Source: Chloroflexia bacterium
GTDB taxonomy: Bacteria; Chloroflexota; Chloroflexia; QHBQ01; JAICKM01
DNA length: 64,000 nucleotides
NCBI GenBank assembly: GCA_038228295.1
Contig: JBBRPH010000027.1
Coordinates: 375-64,374, forward strand
Direction of reading: 5' to 3'
Part shown: one piece after another, positions 12,168 to 34,091 of the stretch
Layout of the letters: every line of letters starts with the position of its first letter
How positions within the stretch are numbered: the stretch's first letter is position 1
Notes under the pieces: generated by a model
What the model was told of the DNA's origin: nothing
Database searches by the model: none
The model's input: only the letters and a program-made list of their open reading frames with translations
Translations under genes and position numbers: made by a program

Positions 12168-12365
12168 ACAGCTATTGTACCCGTCTCTGCCGTCACCCGC
12201 AACTACGTGCCGCCCGCGCAAATCTAAGCAAATCCTAATTATTGGCGACGGGTTCCTAAGATTCGCGCCCTATAATGACACTATACCGCAGCAAATAGAG
12301 GCGCGGTAACGAGACTAAAACACCAGGGAGCCCACGGGCAGCCCTTAACGAAAGGAATCACCAAC

Positions 12366-13286: not shown

Positions 13287-13320
13287 CGCCGCAGCGGACT
13301 CCTCCCCGCTGCGGCGTTTG
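13287..13320 (+). terminator. Intrinsic terminator between convergent genes
   Basis: CGCCGCAGCGG / CCGCTGCGGCG 11-bp stem followed by TTTG. Confidence 0.7.
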
Positions 13321-13329
13321 CTTGTGTCT

Positions 13330-14385
13330 CTACCAGGTCTGCCGCAGCACGCGCAGCCAGTTTGCGTGCGCCAATTTATGCAGTGCTGCGGTATCATAGC
13401 CATGCTGCTGCAAGGCGGCGATCAATAGCGGCAACCCGCGTACATCCCCGATCTCATTGGAGATCAGTGTGCCGTCAAAGTCCGATCCGAAGCCCACCCG
13501 GTCGATCCCCAGCCGGGCTACTAGGTAATCAATATGCGCTACCATCGTCGCCAATGGCGTATCCGCCTCGTTGTAGCCGTCCGCACGCAAGTCGCACACG
13601 GAAAAGTTGAGGCCCACCATACCGTCCGACGCACGGATCGCATCCAGTTGGCGGTCGGTGAGGTTGCGCGTTGAGGGACACAGCGCATGGACCGCCGAAT
13701 GCGTGGCGACCAGCGGCGCATCCGATAATCCGGCTACATCCCAAAAGCCCTGCTCATTCAAATGTGACAGATCGATCAGGATGCCCAGCCGGTTGCAAGC
13801 GCGCACCAATGCTTTGCCCGCAGCCGTCAGGCCCGGCCCCGTATCGGGCGAGGCCGGGTACTGGAACGGCACGCCATGCCCAAAGGCATTCGGCCGGCTC
13901 CAGACCAAGCCCAGTGAGCGTAGCCCCGCCGCATAAAACACCTCCAGCGCATCACCCGCCGGATCCAGCGCCTCAGCGCCCTCAAAATGCAGAATCGCCG
14001 CCAGCACTCCGCGCTCCAAGCAGGCCTGCAAGCCGTCCACTGTTCGCACGATCTGCACCTGCCCCGCCGACTCCTGTTCTAAGCGCAGCAGGCACGCGGT
14101 GAGCGCCAACGCCACCCGCTGGGCATAGCCAAAATCCAGCGGCGCGGCCAGACGCACGGCATAGCCCGTCTCGGTCACCGTCAGGTCCGAGTCGTCCGCG
14201 ACCCCACTGAGGTTGGGCGGCACAAAGGCCGCGAAAAAGCCGCCCGCAAAGCCGCCGGCACGCGCCCGTGGTAAGTCGAGATGCCCGGTCATACTGTCCA
14301 CAAAGGAGAGCGGTCCATCGCCACTCTGCTCATTTATGTAAAGCCGCAGCAATGTGTCATTATGCCCATCCAGTACAGGGATCAT
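13330..14385 (-). CDS. Membrane dipeptidase (peptidase M19 family)
   Basis: DGHND, HFEGAE, DLSH, ATHS, RNLTD, GFGSDFDG motifs. Confidence 0.92.
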   Translation of the reverse strand: MIPVLDGHNDTLLRLYINEQSGDGPLSFVDSMTGHLDLPRARAGGFAGGFFAAFVPPNLSGVADDSDLTVTETGYAVRLAAPLDFGYAQRVALALTACLLRLEQESAGQVQIVRTVDGLQACLERGVLAAILHFEGAEALDPAGDALEVFYAAGLRSLGLVWSRPNAFGHGVPFQYPASPDTGPGLTAAGKALVRACNRLGILIDLSHLNEQGFWDVAGLSDAPLVATHSAVHALCPSTRNLTDRQLDAIRASDGMVGLNFSVCDLRADGYNEADTPLATMVAHIDYLVARLGIDRVGFGSDFDGTLISNEIGDVRGLPLLIAALQQHGYDTAALHKLAHANWLRVLRQTW

Positions 14386-17284: not shown

Positions 17285-17320
17285 CAAAACGGCCCCGCTG
17301 CCTGTAGGCAGCGGGGCTGT
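17285..17320 (-). terminator. Intrinsic terminator
   Basis: 14-bp stem ACGGCCCCGCTGCC-TGTA-GGCAGCGGGGCTGT followed by TTTT on the minus strand. Confidence 0.75.
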
Positions 17321-21644: not shown

Positions 21645-23498
21645 TCAGCGCACCACCGCCGTCACCCGCAACGCCGCGCCACACACTAGCCCCAACGCTG
21701 CCGCAATCGCCGGGGCCAACTCGCCCTGGATCGCATCACGCATATAGGCCGCCGGCACGCCCAGCACCGCCCGCCCGCCGGCCGGGTCCAGGCTCAACAA
21801 CACCGCATAGCGCAGCACTCGCCCATAAGTTTCGGCCGGCAGGCCCACCCGCAAATGGATTAACGCCGCCTGCCACAGCCGCCCACACGCTGCCCCGGCC
21901 AAGCCAGACTCGCCGGAAGCAGCAGTATCCTCAGCCGGTAACACAACCACAGCAGGCATTGCGCTCCCGACCGGCACAGCAAGCGGATTAACATTTTCCG
22001 CCAAAGTGCTTTGTGCTTCCGTGCGGCGCTGTGGGGCTAAAGCTGCAGCGCTTCGCGGCGCTTCGTGTCCCGGCGTTGCTTCAGGAGCCGACTCCGCCGA
22101 CCGCCCACGCCGCCGCACCAGGCTCGTAAAATAGGCGCCTGGCCGGCTCACGCGGCCTTTCGCTTGTGCCCGCAGCGTGGCTTGAATGGCCCACTCGTAC
22201 AGGTCGGGTCCGTGATCGGCCACACACTGCCGGTGCCACTCACGACTGCCTACATCGTTCAGTGCCGCAGTGCCCCAATCCAGCAGGGCCGTGGAGTCCT
22301 CCGCACTCAGCGGTGTTCCGGCCGAGGCCAGTGCGCCGTTAACGTTCGTAGATTCATCCGTTTTAACGGATTCACGATTAACGTTAACGAGTGTGCCCGT
22401 GAGTCCGCCTAGTGCGGACTCCTGTCCCAGGTCCACTCCGCCTAGTGCGGACTCCTTGCCCAGCGCCGCGCCTATACCCGCCTCTTCGCCGATCCTGCCT
22501 CCGCCCGATGCGGACTCGTTCGACTCCGCCCAATGCGGACTCCCCGTTCCGCCGACTCCGCCCGATGCGGACTCCATTTGCCGACCCTGCCCGATGGGCC
22601 ACGTCGTGCCGGTTTCGAGGCCGCACGGAGCGGACTCCTGCCGTACTTCTATAGCAAGCCCGATCTCCGCACTCGTAACGAGTCCGCTTGATGCGGAGTC
22701 CGCCTGGATCTCCATAATCCCCCCAGGTATACCCACTCCGCCTGCTGCGGACTCCCCTACCCCGGTTCCCTCCATTATAGGCACGGCACACGGGGGGTTA
22801 GATCCCCCTGTTTCCATTCCGTATTCAAACGTGCTTTGGCGCGCAGGCGCCAAGCGCGCACGATAACTGCCTGGTGCAGTTAGCCGCCGGCCGTCCACGA
22901 GCGTCGCCACGCCGGCGCGGTCCCGTGTGACACGATAGGCGCGGCCCAAGATAGTGGTCAAGCGTGTCAACTCCGTCGTGGGGCCGAGCGGGGCGAGCGG
23001 GATGGTTAGCCAGCCGGTGTGTTTGCGGGTCCAAACGTCGGCATCAAAGAGCAGATACTCCAGCAAGCCTAGCGATGGCAGTGGTAGTCCCCGTGTCACT
23101 CGGTACAACTTCTGCTTGCCGCGTGGAATCTCTACTTCTTCCACCTGCACCAAGCCGCAGGTCAGTAGCAGGTTGCTGTAGCGGGCAATCGTGTCCTGGG
23201 AGGTGTCCAAATAGGCGGCCAGTGCAGTCTGTGTGCAATGCGCCCACCCGAAATGAGGATGACCAGGGGTAGTCTCCTCAAAGCTGTGCAACGCCAGCAG
23301 CAGCCCCAACCCGGTCGGCTTCAGCAGTGGCCCCCACTCTCGCACCAGCGCGGGACTGATCTCGCCCACCGGTGGATAAGCGGATCGCGCCGCCGGGTGG
23401 GCCGTCCCTGCCGAGGTCGGCGAGGCGCTATGGGGGAATATAGTGGGCGCGCTCTCTTTTGCGCTAGGATCGCTGATAATCGCTGGTTTGCCGCGCAT
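21645..23498 (-). CDS. Putative replication initiator (N-terminal wHTH, central iteron-encoded region, C-terminal DnaA-N-like domain)
   Basis: CTQTALAAYLDTSQDTIARYSNLLLTCGLVQV wHTH; SRPGAYFTSLVRR motif; C-terminal LWQAALIHL..ETYGRVL..AVLGVPAAYMRDAIQGELAPAIAAAL resembles DnaA domain I; sits directly downstream of parAB. Confidence 0.72.
   Translation of the reverse strand: MRGKPAIISDPSAKESAPTIFPHSASPTSAGTAHPAARSAYPPVGEISPALVREWGPLLKPTGLGLLLALHSFEETTPGHPHFGWAHCTQTALAAYLDTSQDTIARYSNLLLTCGLVQVEEVEIPRGKQKLYRVTRGLPLPSLGLLEYLLFDADVWTRKHTGWLTIPLAPLGPTTELTRLTTILGRAYRVTRDRAGVATLVDGRRLTAPGSYRARLAPARQSTFEYGMETGGSNPPCAVPIMEGTGVGESAAGGVGIPGGIMEIQADSASSGLVTSAEIGLAIEVRQESAPCGLETGTTWPIGQGRQMESASGGVGGTGSPHWAESNESASGGGRIGEEAGIGAALGKESALGGVDLGQESALGGLTGTLVNVNRESVKTDESTNVNGALASAGTPLSAEDSTALLDWGTAALNDVGSREWHRQCVADHGPDLYEWAIQATLRAQAKGRVSRPGAYFTSLVRRRGRSAESAPEATPGHEAPRSAAALAPQRRTEAQSTLAENVNPLAVPVGSAMPAVVVLPAEDTAASGESGLAGAACGRLWQAALIHLRVGLPAETYGRVLRYAVLLSLDPAGGRAVLGVPAAYMRDAIQGELAPAIAAALGLVCGAALRVTAVVR
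22401..22754. repeat. Eight 21-bp quasi-palindromic iteron-like repeats inside the rep ORF
   Basis: Units (consensus GASTCCGC-N5-GCGGACTC) start at 22401, 22434, 22497, 22522, 22554, 22617, 22680 and 22734. Confidence 0.85.
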
Positions 23499-23891: not shown

Positions 23892-25130
23892 CTAACGTTT
23901 CCGGCTCTTCGGCACCGGCTGCACGTGCCGGGTTGTGATCGTCGGTGCTTCCGCTGTTTGGGCGGCGGCCGCTGGGATTATGGGGGCGCTGCCATACGGC
24001 AGCATCACGGCCAAATGATGCGGTAGCGGCTCGCCCTCGTAACCGGGATCGCCCAGCCGCTCTTTTTCCTCAATGTACTCCATCGCCGCACGTAACTGGG
24101 CGCGTAGCCGTACCATCGGCTCTAGCACCGCGTCCAGGTCGCGTACCTGCTGCCGGTTCAGCGGTACTTCCGTGTCTGCGCCCGGCTCGCCCAGGATCAT
24201 ATCGGCCTGCCGCAAAACGCCCATTAACAGTTCAATGCGTCGCTGCGGGTCGCCGTCCTCAAAGGCTGGTAGCACACTATCGGCCGTGGGTTCCGGGGGG
24301 ACGGGGGTGGCGGGTGTCGCCGGCTCCTTGTCGGTGCGGCCGGCTTTTCGGCGGGCCTGGGGTGGCCCGGCTCCCGCCTCGTCCCCGTTCAGCACCTGCG
24401 CCACAGCCCGCTCTACGGGCAGGCTCCGTTGCTCCTTCAGCAACTCCGCCGTCGCCAGTGTTTGCCGCCCGCTCAGGTCGTGGGTTTTGATCGCTTCAGC
24501 TAAGGCCAGTTGTACCGCCGGGTCATAGGCGACCCGTGTCAAGCCGCGCGTGCGGACTTCGGTTAATTCGCCGCCCAATAACTGCTCAATAGTTGGGTCG
24601 AGGTTCAGCATCGCCATAAAGTTTCGCACTGTGCGCCCTGACAGGCCCAACCGCTTTCCTACAAACTCATCCAACTCGTTTGATGACAGCACGGCGGCTT
24701 CCTGGGCCAGATCGTCGCGGATCTCGGTGATCGCTCGCGCAAACTCCAAATCGCTTAGGTCTTTGCGTTGACGGTTCTCGATCACTCGGTCCAGCCGCAT
24801 CTCGGTATCGGCCAGGTTCACCACTAGCGCCGGCACGGCATCCAGTCCTGCTTCGCGTGCCGCTCGTAGTCGCCGCTCGCCGGTCACGACGAAATAGCCG
24901 CCCTCATCGCGCCGCTGCACCGTGATGGGCTGCAAAATGCCTCGCTCACGCACCGACGCCGTGAGTTCGGCCATCGCTTCTGCATCGAAGTGCTTGCGTG
25001 GCTGGCGCGGATCAGTGTGGATCAAGTCGGTGTTGATCAGCTTGGCATCTTTAAGCGGCTGCACCCCCTCTTCGGGACTGGCCTGCATCAGCCCTTGCCA
25101 CGCACGTTGCGGCACGCGAGATCGGCTCAT
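23892..25130 (-). CDS. parB: ParB/RepB-family partition protein (plasmid-type, long C-terminus)
   Basis: QPRKHFD, GILQPITV, GERRLRAA, ENRQRKDL; the HTH region differs from Spo0J-type specificity residues. Confidence 0.9.
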   Translation of the reverse strand: MSRSRVPQRAWQGLMQASPEEGVQPLKDAKLINTDLIHTDPRQPRKHFDAEAMAELTASVRERGILQPITVQRRDEGGYFVVTGERRLRAAREAGLDAVPALVVNLADTEMRLDRVIENRQRKDLSDLEFARAITEIRDDLAQEAAVLSSNELDEFVGKRLGLSGRTVRNFMAMLNLDPTIEQLLGGELTEVRTRGLTRVAYDPAVQLALAEAIKTHDLSGRQTLATAELLKEQRSLPVERAVAQVLNGDEAGAGPPQARRKAGRTDKEPATPATPVPPEPTADSVLPAFEDGDPQRRIELLMGVLRQADMILGEPGADTEVPLNRQQVRDLDAVLEPMVRLRAQLRAAMEYIEEKERLGDPGYEGEPLPHHLAVMLPYGSAPIIPAAAAQTAEAPTITTRHVQPVPKSRKR

Positions 25131-25996
25131 GGCGCGGCCTGCCGTTTCGCCGGGCGCGGGGAGGTCGCGGCAGCATCCGGGCCACCGAAGCCCGGCGTGG
25201 TCGGCTCATCGGCCACAATCTCCGCCGCCAACTCCTGGTAGCATTTTGCTACCGGCGAATTACGCGCATACAGGCGGATCGGCACCCCCTGGCCCGGCGC
25301 TTCCGCCGCCACCACGCCGTAGCGGATGACCGACTTGAAAATGCGCCCGCGATAGACCTGCCCAATGTTCGTTAGGATCTCGCGGTTCAGATTGCTGCGC
25401 GAGTCGTACATCGTCGGCAGGATGCCCAGGATCTTGATCTCCGGATTAAGCTGCGCCACTTCGTTCACTGTGGTGATCAGCCGATGCACTCCGCGCAACG
25501 ACAGCAGGTGGGTCTGCAATGGGATCAGCACTTCGGTTGCCGCCACAAACGCATTCACGGTCAGCAGGGTCAAGCTCGGCGGGCAATCAATCAGGATGTA
25601 GTCGTAGCGGTCCAGCACCGGAGCCAGTGTGTCTTTCAGCACCCGTTCGCGCGTGTAGTTGCGGAACAGGTCCAACTCGGCCGCCGCTAGATCCAAGTTA
25701 GCCGGTACCAAGTCCATGCCCGCCACGGGGGTCGGGTGGATAATATCAAGGATGCTGCCCTCGCGCCGCACCATTACGTTGTACAGCGTCACATCTAAGT
25801 TGTCCGGATCTAGCCCCAGCGAGTAACTCGCCGCTGCTTGCGGGTCCAGGTCAATTAACAGCACACGCCGGCCCAGAACGGCCAGTTCGGCTCCCAGATT
25901 GACGGTGGTCGTGGTCTTACCCACGCCACCTTTCTGGTTGGCAATCGCGATAACCCGCGTCTTGGCTAGCGTCCGCCCCTGCCCAGTTTCGCTCAC
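25127..25996 (-). CDS. parA: ParA/Soj-family ATPase
   Basis: NQKGGVGKTTT, IDLDPQ, DCPPSL motifs; overlaps the parB start. Confidence 0.95.
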   Translation of the reverse strand: MSETGQGRTLAKTRVIAIANQKGGVGKTTTTVNLGAELAVLGRRVLLIDLDPQAAASYSLGLDPDNLDVTLYNVMVRREGSILDIIHPTPVAGMDLVPANLDLAAAELDLFRNYTRERVLKDTLAPVLDRYDYILIDCPPSLTLLTVNAFVAATEVLIPLQTHLLSLRGVHRLITTVNEVAQLNPEIKILGILPTMYDSRSNLNREILTNIGQVYRGRIFKSVIRYGVVAAEAPGQGVPIRLYARNSPVAKCYQELAAEIVADEPTTPGFGGPDAAATSPRPAKRQAAP

Positions 25997-26072: not shown

Positions 26073-26429
26073 TCAGGCCGCCGGGCTGCGACCTTCGCGG
26101 CTGATTACGCCCAACAGTTCTAACGCCCGGCGCAAGCTATTGGCGTGGAACTCTAATAAATAAGGATCGCGATCAATCAAGATGGCGCGAATCTCGACTA
26201 AGTGCAGCCCTGCCCGTTGCAACACCAGCACCCGCTCCAGCAGGTCTAGGTCGGCGGGCGTATACTGCCGCTTCCCTTCATCATCGGCCTCGCCGTCCGC
26301 TGCCCCGTCGCGCTGCACCCGCAAGTCTAACTGCTTCTCAATGTTGCGGAGTACGCGCGCCGTCGTCATTTGCCCTCGATCAGCCAACACTGCCAGGGCA
26401 TCTTGTGTACTGTAACCGCGACCTGTCAT
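26073..26429 (-). CDS. MerR-type HTH protein
   Basis: YSTQDA..TARVLRNIEKQLDL..GKRQYTPADLDLLERVLVLQRAGLHLVEIRAIL fits the MerR HTH/wing pattern. Confidence 0.7.
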   Translation of the reverse strand: MTGRGYSTQDALAVLADRGQMTTARVLRNIEKQLDLRVQRDGAADGEADDEGKRQYTPADLDLLERVLVLQRAGLHLVEIRAILIDRDPYLLEFHANSLRRALELLGVISREGRSPAA

Positions 26430-26612
26430 GTGCGTTCCCTGTGGTTCCTCTCGCCCAGCGCAGGCGACTATTTTCCCGTTGAGGCGTTTTGTCCCCTTAC
26501 ACAGCCAATTATAGCCGGTTTTTTTCCAGAGTCAAATCCCTACTACTCTAATGCGATGCCCATGTACTAACATATAGATAAGCCACCAGCCCCAACATGG
26601 TTGTCAGACCTA

Positions 26613-26641
26613 TTGACTTCATCTATGTTTTGCAGTAGTAT
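26613..26641 (+). promoter_or_regulatory. Sigma70 promoter of the ATPase-RHH pair
   Basis: TTGACT-17 bp-TAGTAT about 100 bp upstream of the ATG at 26743. Confidence 0.55.
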
Positions 26642-26742
26642 TAACATCAATGTCAAGGTGATAGCAGCGCATGGCAAGCGCAGGCCAGGTAAAAGAGACA
26701 CGCAATGACGGGCGCGTGGTCGGGTTTTATGAGAGGAACCGC

Positions 26743-27615
26743 ATGACGAGCCAGTACCAAAAACTAGCGATGGCTTTCTTCCATCCATCGTTGCGCGAAG
26801 ACCCCTTCAACCCCGAAGACAGCGCCCGCTATTTCTACCTCGCCGATCAGTACCGCGAAGCGCTCGACCTGCTCGTGCGCCACGTCTTGCGGCGTGGTGG
26901 CCTGTCCATCATCTACGGTGACGTCGGCCTCGGCAAAAGCAGCCTCATGGCAGTACTGCGTGGGCGCACGCGCAACAGTGACCTCTTCAAGAGCTTTGTC
27001 ATGGGTGAGATTCTTGATCCCTCGCAAGTTACGGATGCTGAGTTCACTCGCCAATTGCTGATCGCTTTCGACCAGAAGCCCTATGGTAGCACACGCTCCG
27101 AACTCAGCGAACAGTTCATCATCTTCCTGCAACGCCAGGCCCGTGAAGGTCGCGTGCCGCTGCTGGTGATTGATGAAGGCCAATGCCTTTCCTACGACGG
27201 CCTCGAACGGCTGCGGATCTTCCTCAACTATTCGCTGGACGACCACCGCATCCTCCAGATCGTCATCTTCGGCCAGCTTGAATTGCAGGAAAAGATCGCT
27301 AAAAAGCGCAATCTGGCCTCGCGCGTGCGGTTCACTATGACCCTTGCCCCGCTCAGTAGCGTTGCCCAGGTGCGCGAAATGATCGAATACCGCCTGCGGA
27401 CGGCGGGCCTGATTGACGGTGTGCAACTCTTCGCTGCCGGGGCCATTGAAGCTGTCTACAAACACTCCGGTGGCGTGCCGCGTCACATCGTGAACATTTG
27501 CTCGATGTGCTTCGACCAAGCACCGCGCCTCGACAAGCGCCAGATTGATGCCGACATGGTAGACCAGGTGGCCGCCCGCCTGATGCAAAAGGGAGCCTTG
27601 AACGATGGACGATGA
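26743..27615 (+). CDS. ExeA/GspA-like AAA+ ATPase (standalone)
   Basis: REDPF N-terminal motif, GDVGLGKS Walker A, LLVIDEGQ Walker B, IFGQLEL, SGGVPRHI; GAGAGGA RBS. Confidence 0.85.
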   Translation: MTSQYQKLAMAFFHPSLREDPFNPEDSARYFYLADQYREALDLLVRHVLRRGGLSIIYGDVGLGKSSLMAVLRGRTRNSDLFKSFVMGEILDPSQVTDAEFTRQLLIAFDQKPYGSTRSELSEQFIIFLQRQAREGRVPLLVIDEGQCLSYDGLERLRIFLNYSLDDHRILQIVIFGQLELQEKIAKKRNLASRVRFTMTLAPLSSVAQVREMIEYRLRTAGLIDGVQLFAAGAIEAVYKHSGGVPRHIVNICSMCFDQAPRLDKRQIDADMVDQVAARLMQKGALNDGR

Positions 27616-27997
27616 GAATTACAACCGCTCGTCACGCGGCTGGATCGAAGATCAGATGGCGAACGACCGCGCCCGTGAGGGCGAAGGCCGCCTCAAGCAG
27701 GTTGCCGTCTACTACTATCCCAAGCAACTCATCCCGTTGGACGAGCATCTCTCACGCCTCAACAGCCGCACACGTGCCTATGACGGCCTCAAAATCAACC
27801 GCAGCACCTATTTGCGGCTCTGCGGTGCGGTCCTGATGGATCTCCTTAGCGACCCGGCTTTCGCCGGTAATATGTTTGAGCGTCTTTACGATGAAGCGGA
27901 GCTGGAACATCGCCTGCGCGAACGTCTGCGTGACCTGCTTGAACTGCAACGCGCCTATCAGGAAGGTTCCCTCCGCCCCGTTCTGCCTGACTTGTAG
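27605..27997 (+). CDS. Small protein with possible ribbon-helix-helix DNA-binding motif
   Basis: KQVAVYY (strand), PKQLIPLDEHLSRL (helix), INRSTYLRL (helix); overlaps the ATPase stop. Confidence 0.55.
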   Translation: MDDENYNRSSRGWIEDQMANDRAREGEGRLKQVAVYYYPKQLIPLDEHLSRLNSRTRAYDGLKINRSTYLRLCGAVLMDLLSDPAFAGNMFERLYDEAELEHRLRERLRDLLELQRAYQEGSLRPVLPDL

Positions 27998-28406
27998 AAC
28001 CTGTATCCTCGGCATTGCTCACTGAACCCCTAATAGCATAATAAGCTAATATACTAATAAATCGGTCTGCCCGTACAGTTTCGTCTTTCCTGTATGTGCA
28101 ACGCTGTGCCCAATTAAACACAAACAACCTGCCCCCAACCTCTTGGAAAAATCCTCTCGTAACGCTATATTGCCCTAGGATGAGCTTTACATAATATACC
28201 AATATGGTTATTACTATTTTATCGGCAATTAGCTTTTCAGTGTGCTCAACAGTATAGGGTTTTACGGTAGCTTACTCAGATAATTGCTTGTGTTATGTAA
28301 ACCTAATTTATCGCAGCTTCTCACAATTGCCGTAAATCCTAGAATAGCGTGTCTATATATGCGTAACTGATCCATTTGTCTGCGTGTGCTGGCAATTGTT
28401 GCTAAT

Positions 28407-28495
28407 TATATTCTAGGAACTCGTGTTCCTAGAATATAGATGTAGTAATACGTTTGAATGCTAATCGCGTTAGGAACTCGTGTTCCTAACGCGAT
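28407..28495. repeat. Two perfect 32-bp palindromes sharing core TAGGAAC-TCGT-GTTCCTA
   Basis: 28407-28438 TATATTCTAGGAAC-TCGT-GTTCCTAGAATATA; 28464-28495 ATCGCGTTAGGAAC-TCGT-GTTCCTAACGCGAT. Confidence 0.9.
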
Positions 28496-28566
28496 AACCA
28501 TGTAAGCGGACGATAAAATGTTCCCTTAGCTGGGGCGTTGTGCTCCAAGCAATGGAGAGCATGGGG

Positions 28567-29154
28567 CTAGGCTCCCTTCAACGACCATACAGGCCCATGT
28601 CCAGGATAGATTATGGTGCCGTTGTGGGCACGGATTTTCGCCCAACTCTGTTGTACGGGGTCCAGCGGGTCGCCCATTGTAGCCCAGGGTGGCGTTAAGT
28701 CGCCGGTAAAGGCTTCGCCCGTATCCAGTACGAGCGTGAGGCTGTCGTCTGAATGCCCCGGTGTACTCACGGTTTCACCAAGGATGTCAATTCCTTGTAG
28801 GACGCTACGACTCTCTTCAGCAGTGACTATGAGGTTATCTGTCATGTCAATATCGCTATAGTGATCTTGTGGTTTCATGTGGCGTTGTAACAAGGGAATG
28901 CTTTGCTTTTGTGTTTCCAGCACGATGAGTTGGAGACCGAACTGTTTCAGATCCTGGGCGAGACCCGCATGATCAGGGTGATAGTGGGTGACAAGCAAAT
29001 AGGGGATGGTGGATAATTTGATGCCGGCGCGTTTGCACGTATGCTGAAATTGCGGTAGTGTGTTGGGCCAACCGGCATCAATCAGCAAATGCGGACGGTC
29101 CGTGGCGAGAACATAGTAGTTGGTGGATGCATAGCCCACATTGACGATATTCAT
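28567..29154 (-). CDS. MBL-fold metallo-hydrolase
   Basis: THYHPDHAG, TPGHSDDS, FTGD, PGHG motifs; lower GC than neighbours. Confidence 0.9.
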   Translation of the reverse strand: MNIVNVGYASTNYYVLATDRPHLLIDAGWPNTLPQFQHTCKRAGIKLSTIPYLLVTHYHPDHAGLAQDLKQFGLQLIVLETQKQSIPLLQRHMKPQDHYSDIDMTDNLIVTAEESRSVLQGIDILGETVSTPGHSDDSLTLVLDTGEAFTGDLTPPWATMGDPLDPVQQSWAKIRAHNGTIIYPGHGPVWSLKGA

Positions 29155-32561: not shown

Positions 32562-32577
32562 GGTTTCATGTGAAACA
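32562..32577. promoter_or_regulatory. Candidate chromosomal parS site
   Basis: GGTTTCATGTGAAACA matches TGTTTCACGTGAAACA at 14 of 16 positions; intergenic. Confidence 0.65.
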
Positions 32578-32721: not shown

Positions 32722-32758
32722 AGATCAAACCGGACGGATGTACCGTCCGGTTTGATCT
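32722..32758. terminator. Bidirectional terminator-like hairpin
   Basis: Perfect 16-bp stem AGATCAAACCGGACGG / CCGTCCGGTTTGATCT between convergent genes. Confidence 0.75.
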
Positions 32759-34068: not shown

Positions 34069-34091
34069 AAGGCGGGCTTTAAGCCCGCCTT
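34069..34091. terminator. Terminator-like hairpin
   Basis: AAGGCGGGCTT-T-AAGCCCGCCTT just past the 34124 stop. Confidence 0.65.

Follow-up and report, generated by a model that had tools for sequence, protein, structure and literature searches.

An 18-bp core, TAGGAAC-TCGT-GTTCCTA, lies at the apex of two palindromes between two convergent genes in the window (the whole 64,000-nucleotide stretch of Chloroflexia DNA analysed here), and among related genomes it is found essentially only where a conserved partition module, encoded to the left of the palindromes, is also present. The module is arranged rep-parB-parA-merR-like and, divergently, exeA-like-p130. We propose, with confidence somewhat better than even, that the core is a re-specified centromere of the parS type for the ParB of this module. 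The outer arms that lengthen the core into a long hairpin are probably the ordinary tail-less, bidirectional terminator-type hairpins of this genome, termination being judged from their position.

The core is identical in the two palindromes, which start 57 bp apart, and outside it their outer 7 bp are unlike, each outer arm being self-complementary within its own palindrome (Table 1). Neither strand has a T-run after either of the palindromes, and the G+C-rich stem followed by a U-tract of a canonical intrinsic terminator is not found at the twins. In these respects the window sequence agrees with the original prediction, which had described two palindromes with 14-bp arms at this spacing and with a common core, outer arms that differ yet remain complementary, and no U-tail on either strand. 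The twin pattern is far beyond chance; for the twin-core 14-mer GGAACTCGTGTTCC, 0.33 copies are expected in the window when up to two mismatches are allowed, and the folding z-scores of the core hairpins, calculated for single-strand folding, range from -9.5 to -11. A third copy, whose core reads AGGAGC-GTGT-GTTCCT, is also set between convergent ORFs (15-392 on the + strand and 699-1823 on the - strand). The gap that holds the twins has a GC content of about 38-46%, compared with 63% genome-wide, and the twins are flanked by the stop codon of p130 (27997, + strand) and that of the MBL-fold gene (28567, - strand), not placed in a promoter. The MBL-fold gene is lower in GC and was probably inserted recently beside the site pair; genomes G006, G004, G001, L061, and L065 lack it at this position, the site being followed directly by p148 in them. 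Besides the core, the only part of the gap conserved with the relative G006 is a block at 28284-28305 (TTGCTnGnGTTATGTAAACCTA / TTGCTTGTGTTATGTAAACCTA). After this block, at 28318-28345 on the + strand, lies a sigma-70-like match, TTCTCA-16-TAGAAT, that points into the twins and at which a short transcript may start.

Table 1. Features of the window discussed in the text, with positions counted from its first nucleotide.
Feature	Position	Strand	Description
Third core copy	637-666	none	GTGGCTCAGGAGC-GTGT-GTTCCTGAGCCAC; 13-bp arms with one G.T; outer arm GTGGCTC
Putative replication initiator (rep)	21645-23498	-	617 aa; eight palindromic iterons of its own
ParB	23892-25130	-	412 aa; ParB_N 95.7 bits, HTH_ParB 28.5 bits; proposed reader of the core
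ParA/Soj-type partition ATPase	25127-25996	-	289 aa
MerR-like HTH protein	26073-26429	-	118 aa; first gene of the merR-parA-parB operon; rival candidate binder
Divergent merR/exeA promoter block	26430-26742	none	conserved across the genus; near-invariant within 26500-26670
ExeA-like AAA_22 ATPase	26743-27615	+	divergent from the merR-parA-parB operon
p130	27605-27997	+	conserved 130 aa; found only with the module
AT-rich gap	27998-28566	none	569 bp with convergent genes on either side; holds the twins
Palindrome 1	28407-28438	none	TATATTCTAGGAAC-TCGT-GTTCCTAGAATATA; perfect 14-bp arms, 4-nt centre; AT-rich outer arm (TATATTC)
Palindrome 2	28464-28495	none	ATCGCGTTAGGAAC-TCGT-GTTCCTAACGCGAT; perfect 14-bp arms, 4-nt centre; outer arm ATCGCGT
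MBL-fold gene	28567-29154	-	195 aa; right of the twins
Canonical-type parS-like site	32562-32577	none	GGTTTCATGTGAAACA; 4 kb from the twins
Further long palindrome	34069-34091		
Core-bearing sequence, 22-bp duplex form			TTAGGAACTCGTGTTCCTAA

The first line of evidence is where the core occurs. In the 5.68-Mb assembly the pattern AGGARC-N4-GYTCCT has only three matches, all on contig C27, which at 64.8 kb makes up 1.1% of the genome; this is the genome-wide search that the original prediction had named as a check, and the core is not an abundant dispersed repeat. With the ExeA-like gene as the marker by which presence of the module was scored, 13 genomes of the order have the module out of 40, one whole family (27 genomes) being without it. 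Nine of these 13 genomes contain the strict site TAGGARC-N4-GYTCCTA, which is missing from all 27 that lack the module. When the pattern is relaxed to YAGGARC-N4-GYTCCTA and the search is extended to the class (251 genomes), one to six sites, often as pairs, are found in every module genome but one (12 of 13), and the five stray single matches found class-wide outside module genomes are fewer than the matches to the reversed-pattern control. The core is thus essentially absent from the approximately 240 module-less genomes. In one relative it also stays close to the module. G004, which is assembled in eight contigs, has two sites in the 400 kb around its module and both are within 8 kb of it; that module is on a 2.6-Mb contig without dnaA, which is located on another contig (the assembly is not closed).

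Some 30 sites give the consensus YAGGARC-N4-GYTCCTAA, a 7-4-7 dyad in which the central 4 bp vary among sites and in which about 45% of the orthologous sites read GAGC/GCTC rather than GAAC/GTTC. In the majority of g1 and g4 genomes p130 is closely followed by a site, 115-560 bp downstream. Further sites are found ahead of rep and within a 570-aa ORF in g4, and downstream of topA in G004. In g5 a site pair precedes a 958-aa gene about 4 kb from exeA, and p130 is detached from exeA, 5 kb from the site pair. L067, G003, and G005 carry a site inside parB itself, in the codons of its linker (LGASAPS, encoded by CTAGGAGCAAGTGCTCCTAG), G004 and L066 have a site with one mismatch at the same place, and the clade of L067-L069 has no site after p130 and has the one inside parB instead. 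Paired sites recur independently with a spacing of 46-118 bp. The closest relatives, whose module proteins are 93-97% identical, have the same core but with arms of only 7-8 bp (12 bp in G006), those with 93-95% identity in p130 having arms of only 7 bp, and most of them contain a single copy at the position of the twins. Hence, the extension of the arms and the local duplication are recent and specific to this lineage.

The second line of evidence comes from ParB itself. The protein retains both CTP motifs, GERRLRAA (GERRxRAA) and ENRQRKDL (ENxQRxDL), and matches solved Spo0J/ParB structures with E values of 1e-21 to 1e-28, with a weaker structural match to KorB (PDB 8QA8, E 3e-13). A search for related loci with the module ParB in a collection of genome contigs returned only distant ParBs from other phyla. 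The recognition helix of the module ParB, GLSGRTVRNFMAMLN, has been rewritten. Aligned to 6T1F and numbered as in Caulobacter, following Jalal et al. 2020 (PMC7383237), the protein carries the changes R173G, K171L, Q162D, and G201V and keeps G170, S172, N178, and R204. Since Arg173 is invariant among parS-specific ParB variants (Jalal et al. 2020, PMC7383237), its replacement by glycine means that the module ParB should not read canonical parS. The core, in turn, does not match the universal parS consensus TGTTNCACGTGNAACA, so that it is filed here as a variant and not as a canonical parS. Our search of the literature for the core motif or for a parS of Chloroflexi secondary replicons found nothing specific.

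In the mechanism that we propose, the core would be a cis-acting protein-docking site owned by the rep-parB-parA module. A dimer of the module ParB would load on the core in a CTP-dependent manner, with one AGGARC half-site for each HTH and the centres of the half-sites about one helical turn apart, and ParA could then segregate a large, putative secondary replicon. The three sites of this genome each stand at the apex of a long hairpin between convergent genes, a hairpin that the core palindrome may already have seeded. Several properties of the core and the module are those of known centromeres. The core is a short palindrome of the size expected of parS (about 16-18 bp), its cis copies are few and near parAB (three of the three matches in the genome are on C27), the module supplies an HTH-type ParB with intact CTP motifs together with a ParA partner, and site and ParB clade co-occur, as do the site and the other proteins of the module. 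The small number of copies, their dispersal on a single replicon, and their presence inside genes, one of them parB, are habits of parS and are unlike those of operators or terminators. Of the original prediction, which had offered a centromere for the plasmid-type ParB as one option, the ParB part is favored by exclusive co-occurrence with the module, by the few, dispersed copies on one replicon, by the rewritten helix, and by the copies inside parB, and that ParB binds the core, rather than p130 or the MerR-like protein, is what we infer from these sequence features.

Several considerations weigh against assigning the core to ParB. The linkage to the module is equally strong for p130, the ExeA-like ATPase, the MerR-like protein, and Rep. 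The CACGTG centre is conserved in canonical parS, whereas the 4-bp centre of the core is variable. Finally, a 7-4-7 dyad is the classic operator geometry of the MerR family, so that the layout is also of the MerR type, and a site placed after p130 resembles an ATPase-adaptor-centromere cassette.

The genome contains other pairs of ParB and site with which the module can be compared. A canonical ParB with the recognition stretch VGRSRSAVAN is encoded on C13, and the genome has eight canonical GTTTCAYRTGAAAC sites, six on C30, one on C23, and one in the window at 32562. The six sites on C30, of the canonical type TGTTTCAYRTGAAACA, lie at C30:43855-44229 with a spacing of 47-92 bp, 2.6 kb from dnaA (C30:46846-47328), and this array is probably the main chromosomal centromere, read by the ParB of C13. 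The site at 32562, whose intergenic position is kept in G001 and G004, is probably also read by the C13 ParB and not by the module ParB, and through it the ParB of the main chromosome may also touch the putative module replicon. A ParB paralog on C23 is accompanied by the palindrome TATTCCACATGGAATA, which occurs three times (59654, 59973, and 61943), is unique to this locus in the genome, and is positioned around and inside parB. With one of the three palindromes inside parB and with GKRQAYISKMLALL as the recognition helix of the paralog, this locus is read as a second case of a ParB with a private site. C23 also has a canonical-like parS at 64600. On C93, which may be a small plasmid or a phage-like element, a parS-like TGTTCTACGTAGAACA, again unique to its locus, is at the centre of a 32-bp perfect palindrome (12269-12300), 1.2 kb from two ParB_N genes. 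At 14015-14042 of the same contig, two perfect DnaA boxes in inverted orientation form a 28-bp palindrome (GGTTATCCACA-TCGG-TGGATAACC). One ParB with one private palindrome is, as far as these sequences indicate, a repeated theme of the genome.

The main competitor of the ParB reading, unlikely in our view but a serious contender, is that the core docks another protein of the module, either p130, with the ExeA-like AAA+ ATPase as a cassette, or the MerR-like protein. p130 and the MerR-like protein are strictly linked to the module and are as conserved as ParB. All three have conserved putative DNA-reading segments (in the MerR-like protein the HTH is conserved), the site follows p130 closely in most g1 and g4 genomes, and the dyad has a variable centre. 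As for p130, the L067-L069 clade and the detached p130 of g5 speak against it. In addition, p130 has no match to Pfam or PDB profiles and belongs to no detectable DNA-binding family; the pattern of its sequence raises the suspicion of an RHH fold, and its AF2 monomer model is poor (pLDDT 60) and insufficient for a fold search. For the MerR-like protein, it is the location of the dyad that argues against it. MerR operators usually belong to the divergent promoter of the regulator itself, and their 7-4-7 dyad is centred where the -35 and -10 boxes are 19-20 bp apart. The geometry of the twin dyads is of this kind, but no suitable -35 and -10 boxes flank them, and the TAGGAAC dyad is absent from the divergent merR/exeA promoter in the seven genomes checked. 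That block contains instead two near-consensus sigma-70-like promoters, TTGACT-17-TAGTAT on the + strand and TTGACT-N16-TATAAT on the - strand, with 17-bp spacers and elements of their own, namely ACAT...TGTCA and the repeated AACAT-N3-TGTCA / TACTAACAT, the latter being candidate operators for the small regulators of the module. Similarly, rep contains iterons of its own (CTCCGC-N5-GCGGAS, n=8, 22400-22755), whose sequence has no relationship to the twin core. As these iterons and the merR/exeA elements both differ from the core, the other proteins of the module have other candidate sites.

A related alternative, which we rate as distinctly improbable, assigns the core to the ExeA-like AAA+ ATPase together with p130 as the cis site of an undescribed ATPase-adaptor-site system for the maintenance or replication of a Chloroflexia replicon of megabase scale. 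In such a system the core would possibly be recognized as an extruded hairpin, with the arms lengthened in this genome as reinforcement. Regarding the ATPase itself, the starts of all its homologs correspond to about residue 25 in the longest ORF (26671), and the ATG at 26743, preceded by GAGAGGAAC, is likely the true start.

Also rather improbable, in our view, is a role at the level of RNA, in which the twins would be a terminator or attenuator, an apex read by an RNA-binding factor, or the end of a small transcript from 28318-28345. The convergent setting, which the twins have in common with about 114 other long hairpins, the very stable predicted stems, and the sigma-70-like match 60 bp upstream on the + strand are consistent with such a role. 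Yet in relatives the core is also found in coding sequence (parB and the 570-aa ORF) and upstream of rep, the arms in relatives are only 6-8 bp, the A/G-C/T variants do not keep to G.U compatibility on the same strand with respect to the operon beside them, and Rfam gave no match at E≤1 across 21-33.5 kb.

In our preferred reading, the outer arms are of a kind that is common in this genome. Perfect palindromes whose arms reach 11 bp or more (11-25 bp) number 407 in the genome, compared with about 12 expected, at a density of 1.0 per kb of convergent intergenic DNA versus 0.025 per kb in ORFs, and 80% of those in convergent gaps have no T-tail. Within the window, convergent gene pairs are separated by such hairpins at 637, 13287-13316, 17292-17317, 28407/28464, and 32722-32758. 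Long tail-less hairpins therefore seem, from their position, to be the standard bidirectional terminators of the lineage, and the twins match this class in both form and position. This convention of the genome explains why the outer arms of the twins differ from each other and are nonetheless self-complementary. Two statements of the original prediction are undercut by it. Selection on the symmetry itself is no longer needed where tail-less perfect hairpins are common genome-wide and the arms of relatives are 7-8 bp, and the lack of a U-tail does not speak against terminators where tail-less hairpins are the norm between convergent genes. The twins are like the tail-less (I-shaped) terminators of high-GC bacteria in having long, perfect stems without a U-tract, in their convergent setting, and in a stem that is unique to each site, but differ from them in the conserved, protein-site-like apex common to all three copies and in the AT-rich composition of one stem. 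The outer arms may have arisen by selection, either for termination or to keep transcription away from a loading site, or else a quasi-palindrome may have been extended by template switching. Long palindromes of a separate family, near-identical in sequence (GGGTGTAGGSGCGCAAT-GA-ATTGCGCSCCTACACCC) and dispersed over C23:12809-12996 (three in tandem), C41:7594, C14:52362, C13:90521, C20:15597, and C34:56378, look like REP-like repeats.

Much less likely still is that the twins act as an extruded cruciform or single-strand hairpin, serving as a signal for priming, resolution, or recombination at an origin in the AT-rich gap. The perfect arms of 13-14 bp at all three copies, the AT-rich surroundings, and the minimum of the cumulative GC skew of the window near 28 kb are compatible with it, but the arms are not extended in the closest relatives and this genome has long perfect palindromes as a general feature. 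There are no DnaA boxes in the gap at up to one mismatch, the iterons clustered within rep, at a distance of 6 kb, are a better candidate for the origin, and no recombinase or nuclease is encoded near the twins, which leaves the cruciform/resolution option of the original prediction without support. As for the skew, the curve of the relative G004 over the 400 kb around its module is noisy, with no switch at the module and no clean origin signal, and a reading of the skew as a mark of the origin was dropped as the minimum of the window is not reproduced there.

The least likely of the readings, and a very improbable one, is that the twins form a double LexA (SOS) operator, as the original prediction had also suggested. 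The eight core bases of the Gram-positive-type LexA box, GAAC-N4-GTTC, are present in both twins, CGAACGATTGTTCT precedes lexA on C23, and about 12 intergenic TAGAAC-(AT-rich N4)-GTTCTA sites occur in the genome. The latter are the probable SOS boxes of this organism, and the twins differ from them in their flanks (AG/CT versus TA/TA) and in the composition of their centre (TCGT versus AT-rich). The twins are also at the 3' ends of genes and not at a damage-response promoter, with no SOS gene adjoining; the core bases are lost in the third copy, which has GAGC, and in the many orthologous sites with GAGC and/or GCTC (about 45%); and the distribution of the core tracks the partition module and not lexA, which is expected in all of these genomes. 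LexA may bind the twins incidentally in this one genome, but this is not a conserved function.

The essence of our preferred reading is that the core is a private parS of the module ParB, and several known systems resemble it in part. Among them are secondary replicons with a private parS, such as chromosomes 2 and 3 and the plasmid of Burkholderia cenocepacia and the ParB2/parS2 replicon of Vibrio cholerae. As in those replicons, a chromosomal-type ParB is encoded beside a plasmid-type initiator, a palindrome that is not the universal one is confined to the replicon, and a canonical ParB/parS pair at the dnaA region is present in the same cell. The module studied here departs from them in that the AGGARC half-site, the variable 4-bp centre, and the span of 18-20 bp have no described counterpart, in its uncultured Chloroflexia host, in its additional ExeA-like, p130, and MerR-like genes, and in that ParB binding is here predicted. 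Compared with the Spo0J/ParB-parS systems (TGTTNCACGTGNAACA; PDB 6T1F, 4UMK, and 6SDK), the ParB_N and HTH_ParB fold is the same and the sites are likewise palindromic, few, near parAB, and sometimes inside parB, as in spo0J of B. subtilis, but the site sequence is unrelated except for ACGT centres in some lineages, and residues Arg173, K171, Q162, and G201 are changed. KorB and its OB sites on IncP plasmids (PDB 8QA8) also combine a CTP clamp of the ParB family with dispersed palindromes, some of them in promoter regions as with rep in g4 genomes; no KorA-like partner was found for the module, however, and the OB sequence TTTAGCSGCTAAA is unrelated.

For this lineage, the abundance of long hairpins without U-tails between convergent genes is a caution that perfect symmetry by itself gives no evidence for a special element. 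If binding of the core by the module ParB is true, the pair would represent a distinct specificity class of ParB/parS, defined by an AGGARC half-site, a variable centre, and the exchange of Arg173 for glycine. A canonical pair and at least two further private pairs in one cell would then form a natural series in which to follow how centromere specificity is rewritten without cross-talk, and such pairs could supply orthogonal ParB/parS sets for the labelling of DNA.
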